Of a stretch of 64,000 bases of DNA, positions 5,080 through 20,029 are shown one piece after another. Source of the DNA: an uncultured cyanobacterium. GTDB taxonomy: Bacteria > Cyanobacteriota > Cyanobacteriia > Cyanobacteriales > Cyanobacteriaceae. The notes beneath the pieces are model-generated. The model worked only from the letters and a program-made list of their open reading frames with translations. It was not told where the DNA came from and ran no database searches. Position 1 is the stretch's first letter; every line of letters starts with the position of its first letter. Made by a program: the position numbers and the translations under genes. Where the stretch lies: the NCBI GenBank assembly GCA_963710605.1, contig CAVQBA010000004.1:128001-192000 (forward strand), in the 5' to 3' direction.

Positions 5080-6525
5080 TTAACCAAAATTCACAGTAGT
5101 CATAAAGGCGAATCTTGCCACAAACACTACACTCAAAACCCAAGTAGCAATAGAAACTTGATTTGCTTTACCTTGAAAAGTTTTAATTAGAGGATAGGCA
5201 ATAAAACCAATAGACAAGCCCTCGGCAATAGAAAAAGACAGAGGAATCATAAAGATAACTAAAAAAGCAGGAATTGCTTCTCCCAAATCGCCCCAGTTGA
5301 TACTTAAAGCATTAGACATCATCAAAACACCGACGATTACTAAAGCAGGAGTCGTTGCGTAAGCAGGAATTGCTTGTAAAAGAGGAATAAAGAAAATAGA
5401 TAAAGCAAATAAAACGGCTGCTGTTGCGGCAGTAAAACCCGTTCTACCTCCTTCGGCAATACCTGAAGCTGATTCGACGTAAGTTGTAACACTACAGTTA
5501 CCTAAAAGTGCACCGAAAGTAGTTCCGACTGCATCAGATAACAAGGCTTTGTTTGCTCTAGGTAATTCACCATTTTCGTCAATATATCCTGCTTTCATTC
5601 CTACCCCTGTTAAAGTTCCAATTGTGTCAAACATATCGACAAATAAGAAGACAAACAGAGCGGCAATGAAATTAAATAAATTTGCACTATTGAGTCCAGC
5701 TAAACCTCTGATAGATTCTCCGAATAAGTTCGCAGGAAAAGGTGGAAAATCTACTATTCCTTCAGGTGGGGGTGTGACTTGGACAATCCAACCCAAAATA
5801 GCAGTTGCTAAAACACCCCAAAGTAAACCACCTTTGATATTTCTGACGACAAAAGCAGAAGTTAATAAAATTCCGACACAAGCTAAGATGGTATTAGGTT
5901 CGGTGAAGCTACCAAAAGAAGTTTTAGTTGCTGGATTAGCCACAATTAATCCCGCACCTCCTGTCTCGACACTACCTCCTAAACCAAGGTAGGCAATAAA
6001 CAATCCGATTCCCGCCCCTGTTGCACTTTTAATACAGGTGGGTATAGCAGTAATAATTTGCCGACGAATATCTGTCAAAGTAAGTGAGATAAAAATCAAT
6101 CCTTCCACAAATACACAAGCAAGGGCTAATCGCCAGTCGATTCCTAAACCAATTACCACGGAAAAAGCGAAAAAAGCATTTAAACCCATACCTGGGGCTA
6201 AGCAAAAAAGATAATTAGCATACAATGCCATAGTCATAGTTGCGATCGCAGCAGATATACCTGTTGTAACAACTAACTCAGAAAATAAATCTCCACTTTC
6301 ATTTAAGAAAATTGCATTAGACAAAATAATCGGATTGACGATTAAGACATAAGCCATCGTCATGAAAGTTGTTACCCCTGCCAAAATTTCAGTCCGAAAA
6401 CCTGTTTTATATTCAGCAAATTTGAAGTAGTTAGCGATTTTACCTTGCCAACCGGTATATTGAATTGCACGATTGTCCGACATTTGAGATTGCTCAATTT
6501 CTACATCTTTTAAGTCGTCACTCAT
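5080..6525 (-). CDS. NCS2/AzgA-family purine (guanine/hypoxanthine) permease
   Basis: EILAGVTTFMTMAY, APGMGLNAFF, DMFDTIGTL, YVESASGIAEGGRTG. Confidence 0.93.
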   Translation of the reverse strand: MSDDLKDVEIEQSQMSDNRAIQYTGWQGKIANYFKFAEYKTGFRTEILAGVTTFMTMAYVLIVNPIILSNAIFLNESGDLFSELVVTTGISAAIATMTMALYANYLFCLAPGMGLNAFFAFSVVIGLGIDWRLALACVFVEGLIFISLTLTDIRRQIITAIPTCIKSATGAGIGLFIAYLGLGGSVETGGAGLIVANPATKTSFGSFTEPNTILACVGILLTSAFVVRNIKGGLLWGVLATAILGWIVQVTPPPEGIVDFPPFPANLFGESIRGLAGLNSANLFNFIAALFVFLFVDMFDTIGTLTGVGMKAGYIDENGELPRANKALLSDAVGTTFGALLGNCSVTTYVESASGIAEGGRTGFTAATAAVLFALSIFFIPLLQAIPAYATTPALVIVGVLMMSNALSINWGDLGEAIPAFLVIFMIPLSFSIAEGLSIGFIAYPLIKTFQGKANQVSIATWVLSVVFVARFAFMTTVNFG

Positions 6526-6645
6526 TAAAATGTTTCTCCCTATCGTTGTTAATTTTTAATAGTTTATAAGTGTTGTCAGTTAAGATATGTACTTCAAAAC
6601 AAATTTTATCTTAACGCTACGTTAAACCTTTCAAGTTAAATATTT

Positions 6646-6661
6646 TGTAACCATTTTGACA
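6646..6661 (-). promoter_or_regulatory. Putative NtcA site of the permease promoter
   Basis: Minus strand TGTC-AAAATGGT-TACA (GT-N10-AC), followed 22 nt later by TAACGT (TAN3T), the NtcA-activated promoter spacing. Confidence 0.5.
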
Positions 6662-6885
6662 ATTTTTCTGAGAAAGAAGACTTATTTTTTAATAGATGAG
6701 AATGAGCTTTATTTAACCATAACTAATCAATTTTTTCAGGCTAAAAAATAATTAATAGATAATTAATTAACTTTATTGTATTGCCGTAAAATTATAGTTT
6801 TTAAAATACTAACTAACTAATAAACAAGAGTTGGTAATAGTTTTTTATCCTTATTCTTATCTATGTAACAAAAATAAATATAATA

Positions 6886-8199
6886 ATGACTATTAAAGGT
6901 TTTAGAGGTTCTTTTCTTGATTTTATTGATGATCCTTTTTTAATAAAAGAGAGTGATTGTGTCAGATATATAGAAGATGGTTTACTAATTGTTGAAAACG
7001 GTTTAGTTAAAGATTTTGGTAAGTATGAAGATTTGCAAACTAAGTATTCTGAAATAGAAATAACAACTTATTTCCACAAAGTTATTATGCCCGGTTTTAT
7101 CGATACTCATATTCATTATCCACAAACTGGAATGATTGGTGCTTATGGAGAGCAGTTACTAGAATGGCTAAATAAATACACTTTTCCTACCGAAAAAAAA
7201 TTTAAAAATCCTGAGTTTGCGACACAGATGTCATCTCTTTTTTTAGATGAGTTGTTAAAAAATGGTACAACCACAGCTTTAGTCTTTTGTGCAGTTTTTC
7301 CTGAATCGGTAGATGCTTTTTTTACTGAAGCAAAAAAAAGAAATTTAAGGATGATTGCGGGTAAAGTAATGATGAATCGTAATGCTCCAGACTTTTTGTT
7401 AGATACTGCTAAAACGTCTTACGAAGAAACAAAACAATTAATTGAAAAATGGCATAAGAAAGAACGGTTATTATATGCTGTGACACCACGTTTTGCTATT
7501 ACTTCAACTGATGAACAATTACAATTTGCAGGTCAACTTTTACAAGAGTATCCAGATGTTTATTTACATACTCATTTATCAGAAAATGTCGATGAAGTAA
7601 GTTTTGTCGCTGAGCTATTTCCTGAATCTCAAGGTTATTTAGATGTATATGATAAAGCAGGATTAGTAAAAGATAAATCAGTTTTTGCTCATGGAGTACA
7701 ATTAACTGATGCAGAATTTGAAGTACTTTCTAAAGCAAAATCAGCTATTTCTTTTTGTCCTACTTCTAACTTATTTTTGGGTAGTGGATTGTTTAAACTA
7801 AATAAGGCAAAATCCAAGGATACTCCTGTCAAAGTAGGATTGGGTACAGATGTTGGTGCAGGAACAAGTTTTTCTTTATTACAAACTGCAAATGAAGCCT
7901 ATAAAGTTGTACAACTACAAAAAGAAAAATTATCGTCTTTTCAAGCTCTATTCTTAGCTACATTAGGAGGAGCAAAAGCATTATCTTTAGAAGATAAAAT
8001 TGGTAATTTTGATATAGGAAAAGAAGCTGATTTTATTGTCTTAAATCCCCAAGCTACGCCGATAATGAAATTACGAAATCAAAATTTACCAGCAAAAACT
8101 TTAACGGAAATTGCTGATCTAACTTTTGCGATGATTATTATGGGAGACGATCGAACTGTTGAAGCAACTTATATTATGGGAGACGATCGAACTGTTTAG
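6886..8199 (+). CDS. guaD: Guanine deaminase
   Basis: PGFIDTHIHYPQ, YAVTPRFA, HTHLSEN, CPTSNLFLGSG, GTDVGAG. Confidence 0.96.
   Translation: MTIKGFRGSFLDFIDDPFLIKESDCVRYIEDGLLIVENGLVKDFGKYEDLQTKYSEIEITTYFHKVIMPGFIDTHIHYPQTGMIGAYGEQLLEWLNKYTFPTEKKFKNPEFATQMSSLFLDELLKNGTTTALVFCAVFPESVDAFFTEAKKRNLRMIAGKVMMNRNAPDFLLDTAKTSYEETKQLIEKWHKKERLLYAVTPRFAITSTDEQLQFAGQLLQEYPDVYLHTHLSENVDEVSFVAELFPESQGYLDVYDKAGLVKDKSVFAHGVQLTDAEFEVLSKAKSAISFCPTSNLFLGSGLFKLNKAKSKDTPVKVGLGTDVGAGTSFSLLQTANEAYKVVQLQKEKLSSFQALFLATLGGAKALSLEDKIGNFDIGKEADFIVLNPQATPIMKLRNQNLPAKTLTEIADLTFAMIIMGDDRTVEATYIMGDDRTV
8136..8196 (+). repeat. 25 bp direct repeat at the guaD 3' end
   Basis: TATTATGGGAGACGATCGAACTGTT at 8136-8160 and 8172-8196, giving IMGDDRTV twice. 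Confidence 0.9.
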
Positions 8200-8327
8200 T
8201 ATGACAATTAATAATTAAGAATACTATTCAATTAACTTGTCAAAAACTTTTTTTCGTTACAATTATTCAAAAACTTTTTTAATATATTTAATGTTTTAAG
8301 CCCCTAAGGTTTAGTCGAAGAAATATA

Positions 8328-8362
8328 AAAAACTGTATACAGTATCCAAGTATACAGTTTTT
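8328..8362. promoter_or_regulatory. Putative GntR operator, extended palindrome upstream of the porin
   Basis: AAAAACTGTATAC-AGTATCCAA-GTATACAGTTTTT, a perfect 13 bp inverted repeat. Confidence 0.7.
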
Positions 8363-8710
8363 GTGACAATAAGAATTAAGATTTAAAAAAGAATAATCAA
8401 ATTTAGTAATTATTTTATTCCCCTCTAAAACAGTAAATATAGTGTTGAGATAGCTTACAAAAAAAAGCATTACAAAGTTCGATCAATTTAAACAGTTGAT
8501 TGACAAAATAATCGACAGTAACGGCTAAAAGTATCATCTTTTAGTCGATCGTTTTGTGAAAGGCTATTTGGTTAGTTATCTATGTGGAAAACTGTTTTAT
8601 CTATATATAAAGATAGTTTTTAGTAACCATAGGGAGGTTGAGCAATTACCAAATTTAGATTAACTTGACAATTTCCTAAATAAAAAATAAAAATTTTGGT
8701 GTGAGTTAGG

Positions 8711-10468
8711 ATGACAATTTTAAATAAGATCAAGTGGTTAGTAGTTCCTTCTATTTTAGGAATAGCACAATTAGGTTCGATCGTTAATGAAGCTAAGGCT
8801 GAGACTGCTTCTATATCGGGAAATGTTCCTTCAGTATCAAATCTTAGTGACAATAGTGCCGTCGATCAAGAACTATCGAGTAATTCGATGTCTCAACTCA
8901 ATAGTGTATCTTCTCTAAGAGATGTTTCTCCTACAGATTGGGCTTATGAAGCACTAAGAAGTTTAGTCGAAAGATACGGTTGTATTGTTGGCTATCCCGA
9001 TCGTACTTTTCGAGGTAATCGAGCTTTAAGTCGTTATGAATTTGCCGCAGGATTAAACGCTTGTATGCAGCAGATGGAACGTTTGATTGCAGGTAGCGAA
9101 TCGGTATTAAAAGAAGATGTAGCTACACTCCAACGATTAGCTCAATAATTTGAAGCTGAGTTAGCCGTGCTAGGTGAAAGAGTTGATAACTTAGAAGGCA
9201 GAGTTGCTTTTCTAGAAGATAATCAATTTTCCACCACCACCAAGCTAAGTGCACTCACTAGTTTTTATTTAAGTGGTGCTTGGGCGCCCGGTGACATAAG
9301 AGCAGAGGGAGTGAATATTTTTGCTCCTCGTCGAGGTCAAAATAATGCTCCTGATAGTCGAGTCATTACAGATGATCCTAATGTTACTCTTAGTTATCTG
9401 ACTTGGATTAATTTTGATACTTCTTTTACTGGTAGAGATAATCTTAGAGTTCAATTTGCCGCAGGAAATGGAAACGCCCCGGCTAATCAATTTCTTTCTG
9501 CTGGTTTTTTTAATTCTTCTGGTACTCCATTTATGTTGCAGTCAGCTGGTGATCCAAATGACGTAATAATTAGAGAGTTGTATTATACTTTTCCTGCTGG
9601 TGATAACATAAATATAGCAGTAGGTCCACGGATTCAAGTTTATCGTTTTTTTGATAATAATCGTTATACTTTTTTCCTTAATGGAGCTGAAAGTTTTAAC
9701 TCTAGTGGTTCAACACAGTTTAATTCCATCGATCGAGGTTCTGGAGTCGTTGTAGATTGGAAAATTAACGATATTTTTAAACTTACAGCAGGGTATGTAG
9801 GTAATAACACTGAATTTTTACCAGAGATAATCGGTTCTTCTGCTTCAGACCCCAACAGAGGTTTGTTTGGTGGAACTTACAACATAATGGCTGAATTAGG
9901 TATTTCTCCGACTGATAATCTCAATTTCCGATTTTTATATAATCGTTCTCGTTTAGAAGCGAATCCTTTCAACGGGTATGTTGGTGGTGCTATTGGTGAA
10001 CCTATACCCTATGGTTTCGCCGATGATGGTAATGGTGGTGCTTTAAGACACGCTTTTGCTGATACCTATCTTTTTAACTTTGATTGGGCTGTTTCCAATA
10101 AATTTGGAGTGTTCGGTCGATATAGTTGGGGTAGTACTAGCTTAACACCTAGAGATAGTAGTAAAAGTAAAGGACGGATTGATTCTCAATCTTTACAATT
10201 AGGTTTTGCTCTGCTTGATTTAGGTAAAGAAGGAGCAAGGGCTACTTTTTCTTATCTCATTCCTTTCTCTATAGTAGATGGTAGAGAATTCCTGATTTCA
10301 GGAGGAGGAGACGGCGGAGTACAGTATGAGTTTGAAGCTAATTATTTTTATCCTCTTACTAATAATATTGCGATTGTTCCTTCATTTTATGTGATTTCAA
10401 GAGCAAATAATTTCACCTCAAATGAACCAATTTATGTGACCAATCTAAGGACTCAATTTAGTTTCTAG
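8711..10468 (+). pseudogene. Cyanobacterial SLH-domain/OprB-type outer-membrane porin with one in-frame TAA at 9146-9148 (possibly a sequencing error)
   Basis: DVSPTDWAYEAL...CIVGYPDRTFRGNRALSRYEFAAGL, then AQ*FEAEL in the same frame, FSTTTKL and C-terminal LRTQFSF. Confidence 0.88.
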
Positions 10469-10531
10469 CAATCATAGCCAAGAATGAGATGCTTAAGACT
10501 AATAGATTCCCCTAACCCCCTTTTTCCTAGG

Positions 10532-10697
10532 TAGGGCTGTTTCATGTCTTATTTTTGTAATTTCTACAATGCCAGAAATAGCAGTAAATTTAGCCGTTTT
10601 AATGCGACTAAATCGCTCGATTCGAGTAGTAATAGCTTCTAGCTATTTATTGTGAGCAGATAGCTATTTTCTTCTTCCTTTGAATGAAACAGCCCTG
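10532..10697. mobile_element. MITE with 13 bp terminal inverted repeats (ISAs1-like ends)
   Basis: AGGGCTGTTTCAT (10533-10545) ... ATGAAACAGCCCT (10684-10696); no ORF; next to a CCCCTAACCCCC repeat. Confidence 0.7.
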
Positions 10698-10817
10698 CCT
10701 TTATTAAGTGGGAAATATCACAAATATAATGTTTTAAGTAACTCGTTTCTTGCTATATCTTCGGAAAATTAGCTTTAATTCTTCTATTTAATTAACTTTT
10801 ATGAGTAAAATTTGAAA

Positions 10818-11819
10818 ATGAAAACTTCAGAAATATCTAAATCCCCACTGATTTTAGTTGCTCCTTTTTTCTTTTTAGCAACGGCAATGGTGGTAATGAA
10901 GTCACTGATTCCTGATACAACACCATTATTTCTGGCTTCTTTTCGCTTGATTCCCGCTGGGCTTTTAATCATTTTGTTAGCCGTTATCTTAAAAATTCCT
11001 CAACCCAAAGGCTGGAAAGCATGGCTCTGGATTTTACTTTTTGCACTCATTGATGGAGCAATGTTCCAAAGTTTTCTAACTACAGGGTTAGTCCACACAG
11101 GTGCTGGAGTAGGTGCTGTCTTAATTGATGCCCAACCTTTAGTAGTAGCTATATTAGCAAGGTTAATCTTCCGTGAAAAAATAGGTATATGGGGATGGAT
11201 AGGCTTAACAATTGGTTTAGTTGGTATTTGTTTGTGTGGTTTACCAACTTTATGGATTGAAAATTTCTTACAAGGTAATGGTATTCCTTTTGCGAATGGT
11301 AGTTTTTCTTTGGAAAATATTTTACAAAGTGGTGAGTTGTTGATGCTTTTAGCGGCATTATCGATGTCTTTTGGGACTATTATCATCAGAGTAGTACAAA
11401 AATATGTAGATCCAGTTGTAGCAACAGGATGGCATCTATTTTTAGGCGGAATCCCTGTTTTGATATTATCTTTTCTGTGGGAATCAAATCAATGGCAAAA
11501 TCTTTCAGGGCAAGAATGGTTAGGAATAAGTTACGCCACAGTATTTGGTACGGCTGTCACTTATGGACTATTCTTTTTTCTAGCGGCTAATGGAAATTTA
11601 ACTAGTGTTAGTGCTTTAATCTTTTTGACACCAGTTTTTGCACTATTATTTAGTACTATTTTTTTACAAGAAGAATTAACTAAATATCAATGGATAGGAG
11701 TATCGATTGCTTTGTTTAGTATTCTTATTGTTAATCAAAGAACTCAAATCGAAGAATATATTGCTAAATCTTTCTCTAAATCAGAAGAGGCAACAGTGAA
11801 ATCAGAAAAATCGAGTTAA
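10818..11819 (+). CDS. DMT/EamA family transporter
   Basis: About 10 TM segments, APFFFLATAMV, two EamA repeats. ATG at 10818; upstream TTG at 10812. Confidence 0.9.
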   Translation: MKTSEISKSPLILVAPFFFLATAMVVMKSLIPDTTPLFLASFRLIPAGLLIILLAVILKIPQPKGWKAWLWILLFALIDGAMFQSFLTTGLVHTGAGVGAVLIDAQPLVVAILARLIFREKIGIWGWIGLTIGLVGICLCGLPTLWIENFLQGNGIPFANGSFSLENILQSGELLMLLAALSMSFGTIIIRVVQKYVDPVVATGWHLFLGGIPVLILSFLWESNQWQNLSGQEWLGISYATVFGTAVTYGLFFFLAANGNLTSVSALIFLTPVFALLFSTIFLQEELTKYQWIGVSIALFSILIVNQRTQIEEYIAKSFSKSEEATVKSEKSS

Positions 11820-12061
11820 GCGTAAGGTTATTTCTGGTCAAAAATATACCAATGGTGCTTTACTACTTATACTTAAGATTTGTAAAAATTATAATTATAA
11901 TTGAGACGATTTGATGATATTTTCTTTCAGTTTAATTTATTAAACGTTATCTGTTAGCCTTGCCAATTCATACCCAAGGCGGGTTTTATCTTCTTATTTG
12001 CACTGTTTTTATACTGTCTCAAATTTAACCTAAACAACTATACTTATAAGTTTTTTTAAAA

Positions 12062-12152
12062 ACCCCCCTCTCCTCGCAGGAGCGGTCAGACCCCGCGTCG
12101 GCGTAAGACGCAAGGGAACGCTGACCAAGACAGAGGGGTTGGGGGTGAGGTT
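12062..12152. repeat. Palindromic small dispersed repeat interrupted by a 49 bp structured insert
   Basis: CCCTCTCCTCGCAGGAG|insert 12083-12131|AGAGGGGTTGGGGGTGAGG; an uninterrupted relative lies near 60525-60560. Confidence 0.75.
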
Positions 12153-12198
12153 AAATTAAAGGTAAGAAGACAACCCTTGTAAAGTTTGCACCAATTAA

Positions 12199-13452
12199 CT
12201 AGGCTCGATCGAGTTCGAGAAAAGTCTGCAACAAGACATTAGCACCTTGAGTACATTGCTCAGGGGTTGTATATTCATCAACCGAATGACTAATTCCTGC
12301 TTCACTAGGCACAAAAATCATTCCCATATCAGCAAAACGCCCTATTTCTTGAGCATCATGCCCTGCACGACTAGGTAAGTGGGTATAACTTAACTCCATT
12401 TGAGTACATACTTGAGCGATAATATCCATAACTAAAGGTTTTGCCAGGGTAGGCAGAATATGCAATGTGGTGGACATTCTGATTTGGGTATTAGTTTTAA
12501 TCGCTATTCGATCGAACTCATTTTTCATTTCTTGCATCAAAAAATCGAGGTGATTTTGAGATAAATCTCTTAAATCGATCGATAAATTAACTTTCTCGGG
12601 TACTGTATTGACAGTATTAGGAGAAACCTCTAAGTATCCAACTGTTGCCACTTGCTCACCTTCAATTTCTGTTGCTAAACGATTTACTGCAACTACAACA
12701 TGAGATGCCGCCACCAGAGCATCTTTACGACAATCCATCTTCGTTGTACCAGCGTGGTTAGCACGTCCTTTAACTTCTACTGCAAAACGATATTGCCCTA
12801 CAACACCTTGAACTACACCAATTTGTTTATTTTCGTCTTCTAAAATTCCTCCTTGTTCAACGTGCAATTCAACAAAAGTAGCAATTTCTGCTGATTGCCG
12901 ATATGCTTCTTTAATCTTTGACCAATCTCCGCCAATTAGTTCTAAACAATTTTCGATCGATCGCCCATCTTTACGTCGGTAAATTTCTGATTCATCAACA
13001 ACATTACCTGCCATTGCTTTAGAGCCGATTACACTAGATTCTTCATCAGTAAAAACGATAACTTCGATCGGATGATTAAGCCTCATCTTATTTTCACAAA
13101 GAGTGCGAACAACTTCAATTCCGGCTAATACTCCTAAAGTTCCATCAAATTTACCTGCAATACAAACAGTGTCAATATGAGAACCTGTTGCTAAAGCACC
13201 TTTATTGGGATTCGTACCTCTATAAGTACCAATGATATTACCCGCCGCATCAATACGGACGGACATACCCGCTTCTTTCATCCACGATTGTACTAATTGA
13301 CGAGCTAGTAAATCTTCGGGGCTAAATGCTACCCGACTGACTCCACCGTTAGTTAGTTTGCCTATTTCAGCTAATTGAGCAATAGAACGGTTAAGACGTT
13401 CTCCATTAATTCTGAGACTCGAAATGTTTTTGGTAATAGTAGGAACAGACAT
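12199..13452 (-). CDS. M20 Zn-dependent amidohydrolase (allantoate amidohydrolase / N-carbamoylase family)
   Basis: GSHIDTV, FDGTLGV, FTDEE, ELHVEQG, ANHAGT, AGHDAQ, GISH..DE. Confidence 0.92.
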   Translation of the reverse strand: MSVPTITKNISSLRINGERLNRSIAQLAEIGKLTNGGVSRVAFSPEDLLARQLVQSWMKEAGMSVRIDAAGNIIGTYRGTNPNKGALATGSHIDTVCIAGKFDGTLGVLAGIEVVRTLCENKMRLNHPIEVIVFTDEESSVIGSKAMAGNVVDESEIYRRKDGRSIENCLELIGGDWSKIKEAYRQSAEIATFVELHVEQGGILEDENKQIGVVQGVVGQYRFAVEVKGRANHAGTTKMDCRKDALVAASHVVVAVNRLATEIEGEQVATVGYLEVSPNTVNTVPEKVNLSIDLRDLSQNHLDFLMQEMKNEFDRIAIKTNTQIRMSTTLHILPTLAKPLVMDIIAQVCTQMELSYTHLPSRAGHDAQEIGRFADMGMIFVPSEAGISHSVDEYTTPEQCTQGANVLLQTFLELDRA

Positions 13453-13553
13453 AATTATTTTTCTAGATACAATTTACACTCGCCTGTTAAATCAAGATTA
13501 TAGAGGGTGATTTTTACTTTTACTTCTGCTAACTAGACATTTGATTAGTTAAT

Positions 13554-13625
13554 GCTTTCCTTCGCCAGAATAAATCCACAAGGATTTCGATTTTACTCTC
13601 ACGGTATGCCCTACCACCGAAAGAT
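13554..13625 (-). ncRNA. TPP-riboswitch-like structured RNA (variant) in the amidohydrolase leader
   Basis: UCUUUCG-GU-GGUA(GGGCA)UACC-G-UGAGAGUAAAAU-CGAAAU-CCU-UG-UGGAUUUAUUCUG-GCGA-AGG-AAAGC. GGUG, UGAGA, CCU/AGG and GCG occur in TPP-aptamer order. Manual match only. Confidence 0.5.
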
Positions 13626-14032
13626 TTAGAACTTTATTATTTAATTTTTTGCTGACTTTACAATTCAATGCTATAACCTGCTATACCGATCGCCATTAAA
13701 TTCTCTAGAGGCGATATTTGTCCAGAAATATTCAGGTTAGAGAAGTCGCTTTCTTAAATATGTTACGTATATTACTGCTACTTCAATTTAGCATATTTAT
13801 CCTAAAAATTAGTGCATTGGTCCTGCCATAATAACTTTAGCGATTGCATCTGTGACTGCTTGAGAATCTTCTTGTTTTAATTGTTGATACCATTTTTTTT
13901 ATGACTTTTTAATAAATTACTTCTACGAAACTATATTTTGAATGAAATAAATGACTAGACAAAATTAATTATAGATTGTATTTTCTGTTCAAATTGATAA
14001 TAATAATGATACGATAAAGAGTCTAAAGCCTT

Positions 14033-14121
14033 TGTACAGATACAATTTATTCTGTTTATGTACTTAAACCCAAGATTTTCAATTTGCCATTATTATCGTC
14101 AGTTGACTATGTACTGTATGC
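14033..14121. promoter_or_regulatory. Two degenerate operator boxes upstream of gntR (possible autoregulation)
   Basis: TGTACAGATACA (14033-14044) and TATGTACTGTATGC (14108-14121). Confidence 0.5.
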
Positions 14122-14192
14122 CAAAAAACTGGGAAATGATTGTATCAACACAGATCATTTTTAATAAATAGACAAGAAGGAGAATAATAATT

Positions 14193-14888
14193 TTGACTAT
14201 ATCATCCCATTTTGTACAACGAAATCAATCTTTACAAGAACAAACCTATCAAGCAATCCGTACTGCTATTTTGACGGGGGAACTTGCTCCTGGAGAACGT
14301 TTAGTAGAAACTAAACTATCCAAAAAGTTACAAGTTAGTAGAACTCCGATTAGAGAAGCATTACATCAATTAAAACAGCAAGATTTAGTTGTTTCCCGCA
14401 GAAATAATATTTTACAAGTGGCAGAATTTTCGATACAAGATGCTATTCAATTATATGATTGCCGTCTAGCTTTAGAAAAATTATCAGTCACTCAAGCTTG
14501 TAGTCAAATAAGTTCTAAGCAATTAAAAAAACTCGAGCAAATATTAAATCAATCGGCAAAATTGAGTAAAGCATCTTCTTCGCCATTAAAAGATTTTCAA
14601 ATGCTTGATTTAGATTGTCGTTTTCACCGCTTATTAGCAGAAAGTTCGGGAAATTTATGGTTAGGATCGCTGTTAGACCAAGTTTTCGATAAAATGACTT
14701 TAATTCGAGTACATACTTTACAACAAAATAGCCAAGTGCTTAATATCAATAGTGAACATCAACAAATCTATGATTCTCTTGCAAAAGGTAATCTTGAGCA
14801 AGCCTCGATCGCTATTACTACACACTTAAGCTCAGCTAAAACTAGAGTCATTACGCAGATGCAACAACAAAAAATGCAAAAGCCATAA
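14193..14888 (+). CDS. GntR-family regulator (FadR/VanR subfamily, FCD domain)
   Basis: wHTH PGERLVE...VSRTPIREAL; FCD motifs DCRFH, SGN, EH. Confidence 0.93.
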   Translation: MTISSHFVQRNQSLQEQTYQAIRTAILTGELAPGERLVETKLSKKLQVSRTPIREALHQLKQQDLVVSRRNNILQVAEFSIQDAIQLYDCRLALEKLSVTQACSQISSKQLKKLEQILNQSAKLSKASSSPLKDFQMLDLDCRFHRLLAESSGNLWLGSLLDQVFDKMTLIRVHTLQQNSQVLNINSEHQQIYDSLAKGNLEQASIAITTHLSSAKTRVITQMQQQKMQKP

Positions 14889-15060
14889 CTAGGCATTCAG
14901 ACGATCGACTTACTTTATTAATACAGGTTTTACACAAATTGTTTTGTATTTTTATGTTTAACTACTATTATTAGAAGTCGATCGCATTTATACACATCAT
15001 TTGAAATTCTCGTAACTTTCAATAATCTTAACTCATGCTCATTGCTCAATAGTAAGTTTG

Positions 15061-16104
15061 TCAATTATTGACAAGATGAGAAAGCTGTTGACTATCAAAA
15101 TCTACTTCCTTTTGATGTTGCTTAATCAAAGAAGCTATTTTTTGACGAATCAAAATACCCGGCTTATCGGTTATCATATGTTGCTCTTTACTATTTTTCA
15201 TAGATAAAGGTACATCGTAATCAGTACTCTCTAAGATAAGTTTATCTTCTAAAGTTACAGCTCGATTGAAAGCTATCACATCTTCAGTAGCTGTATCAGC
15301 TTCAGTATCGTTACGCAAACAAAACTGTACCATTTGCGAGACACCATCACTAATCGGAGTCATAGTATTAACAATAATATGTACTAAACCGTTAGCATAA
15401 TTAATTCTCAATTTGACAGTGAAAGGGGCAAACCAATAACCATCAATACTACGATCGGTTTGAGTATCCTCCATTTTGAGATTTTGTTGTTGCTGCTCAT
15501 TATTTGTTACTCCCAAAACACTTTTATAATAAAGTCCCCATTCGAGATCTTCAAATTCCATTACATTAGGAGTCAAATGTTCATCACTACCAAAAGTATT
15601 AGTATGAACAAAAGCAGGATGTGCCATATCTAACTCATTTTCCATCACTCGTAATCCCGCACAATTCCAAGTTTCGTAAAATTCGGGGATTAAGCGGTAA
15701 TTTGAATCATCAGCTTCGGTAATAGTTGGTATTTCGGTTAATGGCTCTTCTAATGATACCCAAGCATAACCATAACGCTCAACACAATAATAAGATTTCA
15801 CCTTATAACTATCAGAAATAGCTTTTTCTGGAGCTTGAGGCACACAGACGCATTTACCATCTTTATCGAATTGCCAACCGTGATAACTACAGGCTAAATT
15901 ACCATCAACAATTTTTCCTAATGACAATTTAGCAGTCCGATGACAACATCTATCTTCAACGGCACAAGGCTCTTTTTTTGAATTTAACCAAAGCACAATC
16001 GGTTGTTCTAATAGCACAAAAGATTGAGGTTTTTCTTGGAGATTTGCTATCGGCATTACAGGATACCAAAAACGTTTGAAAAGTGGTTCTTGAGTGACTA
16101 ACAT
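15061..16104 (-). CDS. Rieske non-heme iron oxygenase alpha subunit (HpxD-like purine hydroxylase candidate)
   Basis: Rieske ligands RCCHR...CSYHGW; mononuclear Fe motif ENELDMAHPAFVH. Function inferred from the purine context. Confidence 0.88.
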   Translation of the reverse strand: MLVTQEPLFKRFWYPVMPIANLQEKPQSFVLLEQPIVLWLNSKKEPCAVEDRCCHRTAKLSLGKIVDGNLACSYHGWQFDKDGKCVCVPQAPEKAISDSYKVKSYYCVERYGYAWVSLEEPLTEIPTITEADDSNYRLIPEFYETWNCAGLRVMENELDMAHPAFVHTNTFGSDEHLTPNVMEFEDLEWGLYYKSVLGVTNNEQQQQNLKMEDTQTDRSIDGYWFAPFTVKLRINYANGLVHIIVNTMTPISDGVSQMVQFCLRNDTEADTATEDVIAFNRAVTLEDKLILESTDYDVPLSMKNSKEQHMITDKPGILIRQKIASLIKQHQKEVDFDSQQLSHLVNN

Positions 16105-16216
16105 AATATTTAGATATAAAAATTTAGATTAAAATTTAATTACTATTTTGGTTGAAATACTAAGTAAGCTCAGAATTTAATACCGTAGCCTATAATAAAG
16201 TTATTTTGTTTTAACT

Positions 16217-16579
16217 TTAACTACCTCGATAAGTACTATAAGACCAAGGCGAAGCTAGTAAAGGGACATGATAATGAGCGTTTATATCCGCTATCCCAAA
16301 ACGTAGAGGAATAGAGTCTAAAAATAATGGTAATGGTAAATTATCTATATGTGCAGTGAAATAACTTCCCATGAAAAAAACTAATTCATAAACACCAGTT
16401 TTTAGATTATTTTCTTCTAATAAAGGTTCGTCGGTACGTCCATCTTGATTAGTTTTAATCGTTTTAATTAAAGTCTTCTCTTTTGAGTTTTCTTCTATGT
16501 ACCATAATTCAATGGAAACATTCTCAGCAGGACAACCTCTAGCAGTATCTAAAACATGAGTTGTTAATTTTCCAGACAT
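16217..16579 (-). CDS. uraH: 5-hydroxyisourate hydrolase (transthyretin-like)
   Basis: LTTHVLD, DGR, HYHVPLL and C-terminal YRGS. Confidence 0.96.
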   Translation of the reverse strand: MSGKLTTHVLDTARGCPAENVSIELWYIEENSKEKTLIKTIKTNQDGRTDEPLLEENNLKTGVYELVFFMGSYFTAHIDNLPLPLFLDSIPLRFGIADINAHYHVPLLASPWSYSTYRGS

Positions 16580-16707
16580 TTATCAATTTTCCTTTCCATC
16601 ATTTAATGTTTTCTTTTGAGTTTATCAAACACTTTAATGTAGTAATATACACTCTCAATTGGTTTAAACTTTACTTTAATTTCTTTTATATTTAGCTTAA
16701 AAACTAT

Positions 16708-16722
16708 TGTATACTGTATACC
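16708..16722. promoter_or_regulatory. Putative GntR operator upstream of uraH and the Rieske gene
   Basis: TGTATACTGTATACC, overlapping a minus-strand TACAAT. Confidence 0.7.
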
Positions 16723-17251
16723 ATTAATTATAAATAAATAAAAGTGTTAGATGATACCAAAGACTAAAAAAGAAGAAAAAAACTGGCTCAACACAATATT
16801 TATTAATTACTCATAAATAATCCCAATAGTCCTTTCACTTTTTTCAAGATTATTACGAATATATTTTGAGACTTAATTTGATCTAATTTAATTACCGCAA
16901 TATACAACTATGAGTTGAAACTATCAAAAAATTATCATCGAATTTAAACTCAATTTTTTGGGTGGTGATTGTTTTGATTTAAAAAAAGGAAAAGCTATCA
17001 TTTTTCAATATATCTTTACAGATTAAATCCCCATACGATCGATTTACAAATAAGATTGTGCTTCTAATTTTAGAATACCGTCTAATAATTCAAAACAAAA
17101 TTTTTTAAATTTATCGACGGATGTTTGCACAAAAATAAAAATCCGTTCATTACGTTTTCAATCTACTTTAGTTAACGTATTAACAGTAGTAGATCGAAAA
17201 CAATCTGAAGCTTAAAAAGAATTGAAATAAATGTTTTAAGCAATCAGTTCA

Positions 17252-17602
17252 CTAAGATTTTTGATTATTTTTATTTTGCTCAGATTGAAACTTAGTTTGT
17301 TGATCTTCTTGAAAAACTTGATTGTTTTTATTTTGCTCAGATTGAAACTGAGCTTGCTGTTTTGGAGTTTGCTGAGAAGTCTGAGTTTGTTGTGATTCTT
17401 GTTGTTGATATTCTTGATCTACACCAAGGTACTGTGGCTGAATATTATTTTTTTGTTGTAAAGATTGTTGATCTTGCTGAGTGTACGGATTAGTTTGGTT
17501 ATTAGCCGAATAATCATAATCTGCGGCATTAGCAGGGGTAACAATTAATGTTGTTACTGTAAATAAAAAAGCGATCGACGCTAAAACAAATTTACGAATC
17601 AT
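17252..17602 (-). CDS. Secreted Gln-rich low-complexity protein
   Basis: Signal peptide ending ANA; Q-rich; FQSEQNKNNQ occurs twice; GGAGG RBS upstream. Confidence 0.75.
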   Translation of the reverse strand: MIRKFVLASIAFLFTVTTLIVTPANAADYDYSANNQTNPYTQQDQQSLQQKNNIQPQYLGVDQEYQQQESQQTQTSQQTPKQQAQFQSEQNKNNQVFQEDQQTKFQSEQNKNNQKS

Positions 17603-17994
17603 GTGGAAAAAACCTCCTTTATTGTTAACTATTTTTAATGTTGATTTTCTAACTCTTGAAGTTAGTGTTTTTTCAACTTACTCTTACTATAGTATCACTT
17701 TTTAATAGTAAGCAAATAATAGTTTTGTTAGAAAAAATACTACTTGACAAAATGCTTAATAAAGGAGTGATTCTTTGTAGCTGTAAAAACTTAGGAATAA
17801 CTCAAAAAAAAGTGATAATAATTCAAGGTTTTTGACAAAATTTTCGAGACAAAACTAAGTAATTTGTTTAATTTCCTTAAGAGCTTGTTTTGTCTCTTTT
17901 TGTTTACTATTTTGGAGTCTTGAGGTGAAGGCATCTAAAATACAAAAAGCTTTTAGTTCATTTGATTTAATACTGTTAAGGTAATGATTATGGC

Positions 17995-18906
17995 TTAATT
18001 TTTCTCTAAATGATTTTTATACCAATGGTGGGCAATATCAACCCTTTTGCATAACCAAACCGAATCATGTTGTTGAACATAGTCTAAAAATCTTGCAAGT
18101 GCAGTTGCCCTTCCAGCTCTACCCGACAAACGACAATGTAAACCAATACTCATCATTTTAGGAGCAGTTTCACCTTCAGAGTACAACATATCAAAAGCAT
18201 CTCGTAAATAAGCAAAAAATTGATCTCCTGAATTAAAACCCTGAGGAGTGGCAAACCGCATATCATTATTATCAAGGGTATAAGGAATAACTAAATGAGG
18301 TTTTCCGTAATCATGAACCCAATAAGGAAGATCGTCAGCGTAACTATCTGAGTCATAAAGAAAACCACCTTCTTCTACTACTAATTTACGGGTATAAGGA
18401 CTGTTACGCCCTGTGTACCACCCTTGAGGACGACTTCCTGTCATTTGAGTGTGAATAGCGATCGCTTTTTGTAAATGTTTTTGTTCTTCGGCTTCACTAA
18501 AATAACTATAGTCAATCCAGCGATAACCATGACTAGCAATCTCCCAGTTTGCTTCAATCATAGCGGCAACCGCTTCAGGATTACGTTCTAAAGCCATAGC
18601 TATTCCATAAACTGTTACAGGAATATTTCTTTGAGTAAATAAACGATGTAATCGCCAAAAACCCGATCGAGAGCCATATTCATAGCAAGACTCCATATTC
18701 ATGTGTCGTAAACCTTTAAATGGAGTTGCCCCCACAATCTCCGAGAGAAAAGCTTCTGAAGACTCATCCCCATGTAAAACGCAATTTTCTCCTCCTTCTT
18801 CATAATTAATCACGAATTGCACAGCAATACGAGCATCGTTTAACCATTTAGGGTGAGGAGGATTTTGCCCATAACCGATCATGTCTCTGGGATAAGATAA
18901 TGACAT
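17995..18906 (-). CDS. puuE: Allantoinase PuuE (polysaccharide deacetylase fold)
   Basis: YPRDMIGYG, INYEEGGE, YEYGSRSGFWR, IPYTLDNNDMRF, GLHCRL. Confidence 0.95.
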   Translation of the reverse strand: MSLSYPRDMIGYGQNPPHPKWLNDARIAVQFVINYEEGGENCVLHGDESSEAFLSEIVGATPFKGLRHMNMESCYEYGSRSGFWRLHRLFTQRNIPVTVYGIAMALERNPEAVAAMIEANWEIASHGYRWIDYSYFSEAEEQKHLQKAIAIHTQMTGSRPQGWYTGRNSPYTRKLVVEEGGFLYDSDSYADDLPYWVHDYGKPHLVIPYTLDNNDMRFATPQGFNSGDQFFAYLRDAFDMLYSEGETAPKMMSIGLHCRLSGRAGRATALARFLDYVQQHDSVWLCKRVDIAHHWYKNHLEKN

Positions 18907-19200
18907 TAGCTACTAATAACTATTTTTAATTAATTTTTACCTATGTATGGAACAAAAATTTTGAAAACCTGATTATTTCATCATCAACTAAAAATGCTGA
19001 AATTTTTTTAGTCTAAACTTTTACTTAATTTAAAGTTATTTTTTGTCCTGTCGCCGAGAATTTTTACTTTAAATAAAAAAAGATTTACTCAAGTAAAATT
19101 GTAACCGTGAATTTAAATACTGGATTTAGAGTATTTTCAACAATAATTTATTTACCCTTTTTAGTAATTACCTTCCCCAATTTTGTTTTAAATTAGGGGG

Positions 19201-19608
19201 CTATATGTTAGAAGCACTATTTTTTAGTGTTTTTTGATATGCCACCCAGCCACCCAAATTGGAAATATCTGGAAAATTATATTTTTTGATTAACTCTTCT
19301 GGATATAAAAAAGCGGTTAAAGTTTCCCCATCTTGCAAATAAATATCGGCTGGATACATATCGGGGGGTTCATTCTTTGCTAGGTAGTTGAATTGTTCAT
19401 CTGTTAATTCATATACTTCCCCTGGGATGGAAATACCATTATCTTCGCTAATTTCGTATATAGCAGGATGCCAACCGTCTTTCGCCGAGTGAAGACGATA
19501 CCGAGATTCAGTTTGTGCTTCTCTGATAAATTTAGCAGATTGCAAATTTTGATGATCGGGTTGTCCTCTCAAAGCCGAACCACAAATAAAAACACGCTTC
19601 ATAGTCAC
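19201..19608 (-). CDS. Gamma-glutamylcyclotransferase-fold protein resembling the allophanate hydrolase C-terminal domain
   Basis: FICGSALRGQPDHQNL, YRL, IPGEVYEL, EPP, DIS..GGW.AY. Confidence 0.75.
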   Translation of the reverse strand: MTMKRVFICGSALRGQPDHQNLQSAKFIREAQTESRYRLHSAKDGWHPAIYEISEDNGISIPGEVYELTDEQFNYLAKNEPPDMYPADIYLQDGETLTAFLYPEELIKKYNFPDISNLGGWVAYQKTLKNSASNI

Positions 19609-19631
19609 ATTTTATGATTAATTTTTTGATC

Positions 19632-19646
19632 GCATACAGTATACAG
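19632..19646. promoter_or_regulatory. Putative GntR operator overlapping a -10 (TATACT, minus strand)
   Basis: GCATACAGTATACAG, ~25 bp upstream of the start codon. Confidence 0.65.
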
Positions 19647-20029
19647 TTTATCAAGACAAATTAATAATGTAAAGTAAATTTATATTCTAAACAGGGAAAA
19701 AGCATATTCGATCGAAATTATTCCAATCCTTATAATCTTCTTGAGTAAACCTCTAATTATCGAAAATTAAATAGACTTTGTTAACGATGGGTAATATCAA
19801 GTCTATTTTAGCCTTTTTTCAAAATTATCTAATCTTTTTAATTTTATCTGAAGCTTGCTTATATATTTTATGATCTAGTTTTCTGTTGACCTTTCTCTTA
19901 ATAGATAACCCGTAAACACAGGAAAACTATCAAGCAACAAACTGAGGCGAAGCGTCAAAGTTCTAAAGAAAAGAAAAGGCAAAATATTAAAAACCCCGCC
20001 TCTGAAAAAACGGGGTAGTTTATAAATAC

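Follow-up and report, generated by a model that had tools for sequence, protein, structure and literature searches.

How a cyanobacterium that appears equipped both to deaminate guanine to xanthine and to degrade urate gets from the one purine to the other is the question raised by a stretch of DNA from an uncultured member of this phylum. The stretch, hereafter the window, is 64,000 nucleotides (nts) long, corresponds to positions 128,001-192,000 of contig C4 in an assembly of 3.93 Mb (7 contigs, 84.9% complete) and has a G+C content of about 33%. Among its genes of purine uptake and degradation lies one encoding a Rieske non-haem-iron oxygenase (15061-16104, minus strand), which the source annotation describes only as an ‘aromatic ring-hydroxylating dioxygenase subunit alpha’. 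As judged from sequence comparison, this protein probably takes over the role of xanthine dehydrogenase (XDH): it would hydroxylate xanthine, perhaps hypoxanthine too, to urate, with electrons likely supplied by general ferredoxin.

According to the proposed route, the porin, the NCS2 permease and GuaD would form a module for uptake and deamination that turns guanine into xanthine, which the Rieske enzyme would then oxidise to urate. HpxO would hydroxylate urate to 5-hydroxyisourate, UraH together with UraD would convert this product to allantoin, PuuE would yield allantoate, and the amidohydrolase would release ureidoglycine and NH3. An earlier note on this DNA had already listed the porin, NCS2, guaD, Rieske, uraH, puuE and M20 amidohydrolase genes as a cluster, and each of them was recovered where it had been placed (Table 1), with uraH and the Rieske gene on one strand and uraH 112 nts upstream. 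Gene identities rest on Pfam and NCBIfam scans of the listed open reading frames (ORFs), with curated cut-offs where quoted; the Pfam scans of the window covered 15 ORFs of at least 80 amino acids (aa) between 2.6 and 24.5 kb and, elsewhere, 30 ORFs of 90 aa or more that do not overlap. Consistent with the earlier note, no xdh, uricase, hpxO, uraD or Rieske reductase gene was detected among these selected ORFs of the window.

Family searches were extended to the whole assembly by six-frame translation. No match to uricase (PF01014), to PuuD (PF06181) or to PF02738 (MoCoBD_1, the XDH-type molybdenum cofactor (Moco) domain) was found in the assembly, while a control search with PF02738 matched 6 of 14 named genomes. 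A stretch of contig C6 (L013) contains four same-strand genes, pbuX, hpxO, uraD and an 8-oxoguanine-deaminase-like amidohydrolase gene, all scoring above their curated cut-offs (Table 1). The molybdenum-independent purine route put forward in the earlier note is thus sustained in part: neither xdh nor uricase came to light, and for xanthine oxidation no candidate other than the Rieske protein is visible. On the other side, the enzyme is not HpxD (see below), canonical hpxO and uraD are present on C6, and of the two canonical enzymes whose presence elsewhere in the genome would have spoken against the note's idea, urate oxidase was found and XDH was not. Because neither ureidoglycine aminohydrolase (TIGR03214) nor ureidoglycolate lyase (PF04115) was found genome-wide, the steps past the allantoate amidohydrolase are unaccounted for. 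It is worth noting that the cluster on C6 is followed by a gene of the gamma-glutamyltransferase family (L013:6750-8402), the product of which presumably resembles the Klebsiella oxamate amidohydrolase HpxW.

The assignment of the xanthine step is carried by two lines of evidence, the first being the distribution of the Rieske protein among genomes that degrade urate. Proteins of the window's Rieske type form a clade of 14 tree rows (support 94/86), hereafter clade A. When 301 genomes of the phylum were searched with the Rieske protein, 20 of them, its own included, encoded a homologue of at least 50% identity. Within the host class, 28 genomes carry both uraH and HpxO and were compared, with 30 uraH-bearing genomes of other classes standing outside the comparison. 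Eleven of the 28 have a clade-A protein (G000, G056, G196, G200, G212, G266, G280, G290, G292, G298 and G158), and not one of these has any PF02738 match or an HpxD orthologue (0/11 for each). Among the other 17 urate degraders, XdhB over the cut-off occurs in 7, an HpxD orthologue in 8 and at least one of the two in 12; three of the eight genomes with an HpxD orthologue also carry XdhB. In two genomes (G029 and G248), the XdhB gene is located a few kb from uraH or hpxO. The pattern recurred in a second set of 32 clade-A genomes, in which XdhB over the cut-off and HpxD orthologues are both absent (0/32 each) and HpxO over the cut-off is present in 30. Pooled, neither XdhB over the cut-off nor a true HpxD was found in any of the 43 clade-A genomes, in counts that cover 301 sampled and 33 named genomes and in which relatives are not independent. 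Urate-degrading cyanobacteria hence sort into three largely exclusive solutions of the xanthine step, namely XdhB, HpxD without hpxE, and clade A.

The second line of evidence is gene neighbourhood. About 20 kb (less at contig ends) around each of the 19 foreign homologues of the first sample was compared with the purine proteins of the window genome. Purine genes surround the Rieske gene in 8 of the 19 loci (L044, L045, L047, L048, L049, L050, L051 and L053; 62-70% identity), in strings such as pbuX-hpxO-uraH-Rieske-uraD-deaminase (L044) or hpxO-uraH-Rieske-uraD (L047). The remainder comprises one homologue at a contig end (L046), seven solitary genes and three tandem pairs beside a distant amidohydrolase and a GntR gene. 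A related-locus search then provided a second set of 79 named loci with no overlap with the first sample, from Xenococcaceae, Kamptonema, Waterburya, Xenococcus sp. PCC 7305, Spirulina, Pseudanabaena, Leptolyngbya and others, and here purine genes flank the Rieske gene in 22 of the 36 loci of at least 59% identity. Orthologues within such purine strings are 62-71% identical to the window protein. Linkage of clade A to purine genes recurs across several families (f1, f3, f7, f9, f16 and f17) and in named genera, among them Kamptonema, Waterburya, Xenococcus and Pseudanabaena. The porin and the GntR/FCD regulator are conserved in the related clusters and the EamA transporter recurs. In two loci (L105 and L152), the order GntR-NCS2-Rieske-EamA-guaD puts a clade-A gene in the slot which true HpxD holds elsewhere (NCS2-guaD-HpxD). 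The clustering is real, conserved and far beyond chance.

The Rieske protein itself has intact CxH...CxxH and DxxHxxxxH motifs and an intact Asp ligand, and its segments CCHR...CSYH, DMAHPAFVH and LEDK align with HpxD and NdmA. Like HpxD, it combines the Rieske and VanA_C domains with [2Fe-2S] ligands and a mononuclear 2-His-1-carboxylate iron site. No NCBIfam model names the window protein, and the ESM Atlas returned only generic ‘Rieske/VanA_C’ clusters. Among solved structures, NdmA comes closest (E 1.6e-37), followed by SxtDIOX, SxtT and NdmB, all of which act on purine-like heterocycles. Named references for comparison were taken from PLSDB: a Pantoea dispersa record, in which ‘hpxD: molybdenum cofactor-independent xanthine hydroxylase subunit HpxD’ is followed by a PDR/VanB oxidoreductase; a 1-Mb K. 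pneumoniae record (L078) with hpxT-hpxQ-hpxP, hpxO and hpxD-hpxE; an Acinetobacter plasmid with the gene order Rieske-LysR-Rieske-hpxO; and an Ndm-like cluster of Paraburkholderia caffeinilytica. By BLASTP, the window protein is 29% identical to HpxD of Klebsiella (122 bits) and Pantoea (121 bits). A maximum-likelihood tree was built from 42 sequences, with the exceptionally long row O_G298b omitted. In this tree, an HpxD clade (100/99) unites the proteins of Klebsiella, Pantoea and Acinetobacter with a second cyanobacterial Rieske type; the window protein stands outside it, in a separate clade (100/100) on a branch of 0.98. The identity of 29% and the separate clade rule out that the window protein is an HpxD orthologue, and the homology to HpxD implied in the earlier note, for which a phylogeny against HpxD had been proposed as a check, does not survive that tree. 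By these comparisons, the window enzyme is placed as an uncharacterised, separate lineage within the NdmA/HpxD/SxtT-like group of purine-type Rieske oxygenases.

By the same measures, genuine HpxD orthologues are recognisable in other cyanobacteria. The second cyanobacterial type, 33-36% identical to the window protein, shares 45-52% identity with HpxD (301-347 bits), and its guaD-linked members share 48-52% with Klebsiella HpxD. Its genes (L065:9467-10519, L066:9466-10500, L067:9444-10496 and L071:9531-10577) lie directly beside guaD and NCS2 permease genes, the products of which are 67-69% and 61-65% identical, respectively, to those of the window.

A further question is where the electrons come from. 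Searches of the window genome by tblastn with HpxE of Klebsiella and Pantoea and with an NdmD-like protein returned only matches to ferredoxin domains (39-47 bits), none of them in the window, and PF00175 occurs only twice in the genome, in frames of 389 and 1469 aa. Likewise, no reductase or ferredoxin gene was found among 68 further ORFs of seven clade-A clusters, nor near the solitary, tandem or HpxD-type loci scanned. The cyanobacterial HpxD orthologues had no hpxE beside them either (0 of 5 loci, counting ORFs no shorter than 80 aa up to 4 kb away). Because a dedicated reductase is missing from the genome and from the related clusters searched, supply by general ferredoxin is the economical inference. 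Such a supply matches that of plant and cyanobacterial Rieske oxygenases. The earlier note had suggested that photosynthetic ferredoxin perhaps drives the enzyme, and the failure to find a dedicated Rieske reductase fits a supply from general ferredoxin. A life without Moco as the cause of the Rieske route was rejected, since MoaC and MoeA are present in the genome.

Other functions for the Rieske protein have to be weighed against xanthine hydroxylation. The earlier note had raised the idea of an undescribed type of urate oxidase, in which the Rieske enzyme would hydroxylate urate to 5-hydroxyisourate, prompted by the position of its gene directly behind uraH and by the lack of a urate oxidase in the window itself. 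This reading was rejected as extremely improbable. Canonical hpxO is present on C6 together with uraD, HpxO over the cut-off was found in every one of the 28 genomes of the class that carry uraH as well as in most of the second-set clade-A genomes, and no uricase was detected in any of the 32 genomes tested. In relatives, hpxO directly adjoins the uraH-Rieske pair and belongs to the same string as the Rieske gene in nine loci (L044, L045, L047, L050, L051, L053, L085, L086 and L088). An oxygenase that invariably accompanies HpxO, and whose gene often shares an operon-like string with hpxO, is no substitute for it, and urate oxidation is already covered wherever the Rieske gene forms part of a purine cluster. 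There is thus no missing urate oxidase in this genome, which removes a false lead. The Rieske enzyme could also act one step earlier, on C8 of guanine, so that the 8-oxoguanine formed would be deaminated to urate by the clustered amidohydrolase and xanthine would be bypassed. Such a bypass would make sense of the 8-oxoguanine-deaminase-like gene that comes after uraD on C6, of the deaminase genes found beside the Rieske gene or uraD in eight loci (L044, L045, L048, L051, L087, L088, L097 and L099), and of the occurrence of the deaminase over the cut-off in 8 of the 11 first-sample clade-A genomes, with guaD lacking in five of these eight. It is nevertheless unlikely, given that the deaminase also occurs outside clade A (in 10 of the 17 other urate degraders, XDH-type genomes included) and is absent from three of the 11 clade-A genomes, and that the cluster of the window genome retains a canonical guaD. 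The preferred substrate is xanthine, whether or not hypoxanthine is used as well, because two of those three genomes (G056 and G292) have neither guaD nor the 8-oxoguanine deaminase over the cut-off and because the xanthine made by the window's guaD product needs an oxidase.

The resemblance to NdmA, the best solved relative, and the position of clade A in the tree leave some room for an Ndm-like N-demethylase or another tailoring oxygenase, which would turn modified purines, such as methylated guanine or xanthine released by nucleic-acid turnover, into purines that can be catabolised, in which case urate would be obtained mainly by uptake; the pbuX-type permease beside hpxO could import xanthine or urate, and tandem pairs of related Rieske genes stand in clusters of another N-heterocycle type, with an NMT1 ATP-binding cassette (ABC) transporter, an amidohydrolase and a 2-oxoglutarate (2OG) oxygenase. 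This function would leave 43 genomes that have guaD and/or HpxO-UraH-UraD without any xanthine oxidiser. Moreover, genes for an NdmD-type reductase, for glutathione S-transferase and for formaldehyde detoxification are all missing from the clusters, unlike the Ndm locus of Paraburkholderia caffeinilytica (L076), and demethylation is improbable here. It is quite improbable, too, that the true substrate is an unrelated aromatic compound and that the enzyme's place among purine genes is irrelevant to its function, as the loci lacking purine neighbours (14 of 36 in the second set; 7 single-copy and 3 tandem-pair loci of the 19 in the first) and three clade-A genomes without HpxO and uraH could suggest. 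The linkage recurs across several cyanobacterial families and named genera, 10 of the 11 second-set genomes with a solitary Rieske gene carry HpxO elsewhere, and the complementarity with XDH and HpxD argues against coincidence. A different enzyme at the xanthine step, of the XanA type, was rejected for clade-A genomes at large since the TauD family was not found in 7 of the 11 first-sample ones.

Several observations nevertheless weigh against xanthine hydroxylation by the Rieske protein. The assignment is a prediction from gene neighbourhood and phyletic complementarity, and the protein's own relationships do not favour HpxD: BLASTP gives 30% identity to an Ndm-like N-demethylase (148 bits), and HpxD is no closer to the window protein than this; the window protein's clade is sister, weakly (91/83), to the Ndm-like pair and not to HpxD. 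Two residue positions were compared, those that differ between the two NdmA sequences in the Protein Data Bank (PDB) and which we take to be specificity-determining. At these positions clade A carries D and T, with N instead of D in the window protein, against N and F in HpxD and in one of the two Ndm-like sequences. The pocket thus does not resemble that of HpxD, and its residues offer no positive support for xanthine. The 14 second-set loci lacking a purine neighbour did so in the flank examined, and 3 of the 14 clade-A genomes of the first sample (G278, G144 and G272) have neither uraH nor HpxO over the cut-off. As for complementarity, one genome (G302) has an XdhB-like gene that scores 751 bits, below the cut-off of 849.5, and four others (G310, G311, G314 and G317) encode a Moco protein of 917-935 aa (about 290 bits). 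Five of the 17 urate degraders outside clade A (G002, G011, G095, G101 and G172) have neither XdhB nor HpxD nor clade A, and it is possible that these genomes use other xanthine oxidisers or take up urate only. The counts are given without a test statistic since related genomes are not independent samples. Finally, the window genome contains two TauD-family genes, neither of them near a purine cluster, so that a XanA-like enzyme is possible there, and the completeness of its assembly is 84.9%.

Xanthine hydroxylation by clade A can be set beside the systems already described for this step. The Klebsiella/Pantoea system HpxDE (PMC7373994, PMC13751858 and PMC4562309; PGAP product names in PLSDB records) is a Moco-independent xanthine hydroxylase, made of the Rieske protein HpxD and the PDR/VanB-type reductase HpxE. 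HpxDE oxidises hypoxanthine and xanthine to urate. The window protein shares with HpxD the pair of Rieske and VanA_C domains, a length of about 345 aa and a predicted Moco-free oxidation of xanthine, and shares with the Klebsiella hpx locus (L078) the company of hpxO, uraH/hpxT, uraD/hpxQ and a purine permease. It differs in its low identity, separate clade and residues at the two NdmA-variable positions, and in that hpxE follows hpxD in the reference loci L077 and L078 and is found neither in the window nor in seven related clusters or the genome. With NdmA and NdmB (PDB 6ICK and 6ICL), the N-demethylases of methylxanthines and hence of purines, it aligns over residues 8-332 with the same ligand motifs. 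Identity is 29-30%, the clusters lack NdmD/NdmE partners and formaldehyde-handling genes, and the reaction predicted is C-hydroxylation rather than N-demethylation. The cyanobacterial VanA_C-type oxygenases SxtT, GxtA and SxtDIOX (PDB 6WN3 and 6WNC) act on a purine-derived tricyclic scaffold, and the saxitoxin enzymes rank second and third among the solved relatives (E 2.4e-32 and 2.1e-30). They tailor a secondary metabolite, whereas no sxt genes were seen near the window gene in the Pfam scans of the window; the cyanobacterial HpxD orthologues are closer to the saxitoxin enzymes (E 1.6e-41) than the window protein is.

XdhAB (Moco/FAD/2Fe-2S) catalyses the same step as that predicted for clade A, with an unrelated fold and unrelated cofactors. 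In XDH, water provides the oxygen and the electrons go to NAD+ or ferredoxin, while a Rieske monooxygenase uses up O2 and two electrons. The fungal enzyme XanA, an alpha-ketoglutarate-dependent xanthine hydroxylase of the TauD family, is also independent of Moco and of unrelated fold. A broader proposal, which we put forward tentatively and at somewhat less than even confidence, is that clade A is a second, separately recruited family of Mo-free purine C8-hydroxylases that has displaced XDH and HpxD in scattered cyanobacteria and is fed directly by photosynthetic ferredoxin, so that scavenging of nitrogen from guanine and xanthine would be coupled to light and controlled by NtcA, with no need for Moco or a dedicated reductase. 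Purines are a widespread source of dissolved organic nitrogen, xanthine oxidation in cyanobacteria is poorly charted, and full-text literature searches returned no description of a cyanobacterial Rieske enzyme in purine catabolism. If the proposal holds, clade A would add a third enzyme family to those that turn xanthine into urate in bacteria and would be an example of a catabolic Rieske oxygenase running on a general photosynthetic electron carrier. A gene annotated as an ‘aromatic ring-hydroxylating dioxygenase subunit alpha’ would receive a specific name, and the gap between guaD and hpxO in metabolic models could be corrected.

Table 1. Features of the purine cluster in the window and of the accompanying locus on contig C6 (positions refer to the window unless a contig is named)
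Feature	Position	Strand	Score or location
NCS2 (xanthine/uracil permease family) nucleobase transporter	5080-6525	-	PF00860, 139 bits
guaD, guanine deaminase (guanine to xanthine)	6886-8199	+	NF006679, 654 bits (cut-off 351); TIGR02967, 593 bits (above cut-off)
Perfect GTAN8TAC box	8342-8355		Between guaD and the porin gene, 356 nts upstream of the porin ATG
SLH and OprB/SomB-type outer-membrane porin	8711-10468	+	NF033921, 153 and 162 bits for its two ORFs
EamA/DMT transporter	10812-11819	+	PF00892, 161 bits
Allantoate amidohydrolase (M20 family)	12199-13452	-	NF006771, 439 bits (cut-off 399)
GntR/FCD transcription regulator, divergent from the uraH-Rieske pair	14193-14888	+	PF00392 and PF07729
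Rieske and VanA_C non-haem-iron oxygenase (clade A)	15061-16104	-	PF00355, 77 bits; PF19112, 65.5 bits
uraH, 5-hydroxyisourate hydrolase	16217-16579	-	TIGR02962, 128 bits (cut-off 87)
Gln-rich 116-aa ORF with signal-peptide-like start	17252-17602	-	No family match
puuE, PuuE-type allantoinase	17995-18906	-	TIGR03212, 541 bits (cut-off 425)
Free-standing AH_C/GGACT-fold protein (allophanate-hydrolase C-terminal domain)	19201-19608	-	PF21986, 98.6 bits
pbuX, xanthine permease	Contig C6		TIGR03173, 424.5 bits (cut-off 414.15)
hpxO, FAD-dependent urate hydroxylase	Contig C6		NF033623, 602 bits (cut-off 500); between pbuX and uraD
uraD, OHCU decarboxylase	Contig C6		TIGR03164, 189 bits (cut-off 96); sole match in the genome
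8-Oxoguanine-deaminase-like amidohydrolase	Contig C6		NF006055, 646 bits (cut-off 532); after uraD

The AH_C protein is found beside puuE, usually also with a GntR gene, in eight related loci (L045, L048, L050, L051, L053, L087, L115 and L146). The Gln-rich ORF has no Pfam match and no counterpart in the related clusters, and may not belong to the purine system. The other window ORFs scanned include chemotaxis-like, MutS2, Raf1, NdhD and RNase E genes. The porin frame is interrupted by a single in-frame TAA (9146-9148), which gives two same-frame ORFs of 145 and 433 aa and is either a nonsense (pseudogene) mutation or an assembly error. Two more interrupted genes were seen in this genome. A DUF2344 gene beside its radical-SAM partner is split into two overlapping ORFs (window 59820-60654), and the only PF00384 molybdopterin oxidoreductase of the genome, which is narB-like, consists of two ORFs of 364 and 415 aa (C2:77561-81100, L082). 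Together with the completeness of 84.9%, the porin stop and the split DUF2344 and narB-like genes suggest assembly errors or ongoing gene decay. Clade-A genes are themselves broken in two relatives, by one TGA inside the search match in G200 (L053:9511-10560) and into three ORFs in the complete genome containing L113 (L113:9953-11013), which may reflect gene decay.

Among the relatives, a DUF1993 protein is encoded between uraH and the Rieske gene in two clusters (L044:8893-9405 and L048:10828-11355). Tandem pairs of clade-related Rieske genes (50-54% identity) occur at L060:8984-11082, L061:8959-11051 and L062:8929-11343, and also at L146:8938-11026. The first three are accompanied by a GntR/FCD gene (3/3), an amidohydrolase (2/3), an NMT1-type ABC transporter (2/3) and a 2OG oxygenase (1/3), an arrangement that suggests a different catabolic cluster for N-heterocycles. 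The tandem pair of Pseudanabaena frigida lies about 4 kb from a porin gene, the nearest gene of a full purine cluster. Outside the phylum, a homologue on a Variovorax chromid (44% identity) and alphaproteobacterial homologues (47-50%) have no purine neighbours by BLAST against the purine reference set. The mobilizable plasmid of Acinetobacter sp. NCu2D-2 (NZ_CP015595.1, L075) carries a purine-catabolic island with two Rieske genes of the HpxD clade, together with LysR, hpxO, alc, ureidoglycolate lyase, uraH, uraD, a BMP-type ABC transporter and deaminases; no hpxE is annotated within the 19 kb viewed, and about 47 Acinetobacter plasmid records match.

A link of uptake to nitrogen status had been suggested in the earlier note from an NtcA-like site at 6646. 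The site (GTAACCATTTTGAC, 6647-6660) reads GTAN8GAC, one mismatch from GTAN8TAC, and lies 121 nts upstream of the permease start. Boxes with one mismatch are as frequent in the window as in shuffled sequence (310 vs 306 ± 15), which deprives this one of weight, and perfect GTAN8TAC sites are likewise at chance level (14 vs 12.8 ± 3.6), the one between guaD and the porin gene among them. Related loci differ from the window in this respect: across 28 of them, perfect boxes are present in 36 of 153 regions upstream of cluster genes, vs 10.4 ± 3.0 in shuffles, and none of 500 shuffles reaches 36. The box was found in 13 of 25 Rieske upstream regions and in 8 of 10 porin loci of relatives. Nine of the Rieske boxes are located 72-74 nts before the ORF start in the Waterburya/Xenococcus group (L093, L095, L097, L099, L101, L116, L119, L120 and L122), with variable spacers and conserved GTA and TAC arms. 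Nitrogen control of the system is hence plausible in relatives, while the window's own sites do not rise above chance.

A riboswitch such as the xanthine/urate NMT1 motif (PMC7373994) was not detected in the window, where every Rfam family stayed below its gathering score. A consensus scan of positions 14800-19800 gave 22 promoter-like sites, with 22.1 expected, and one terminator-like site, with 1.9 expected. A look-up of sequencing runs for 14900-17000 returned none, and no RNA record was listed. Within the long AT-rich spacer upstream of uraH, at a distance of about 130 nts, lies a doubled palindromic hexamer, GTATAC-A-GTATAC (16709-16721, minus strand), which might be an operator for the GntR/FCD regulator.

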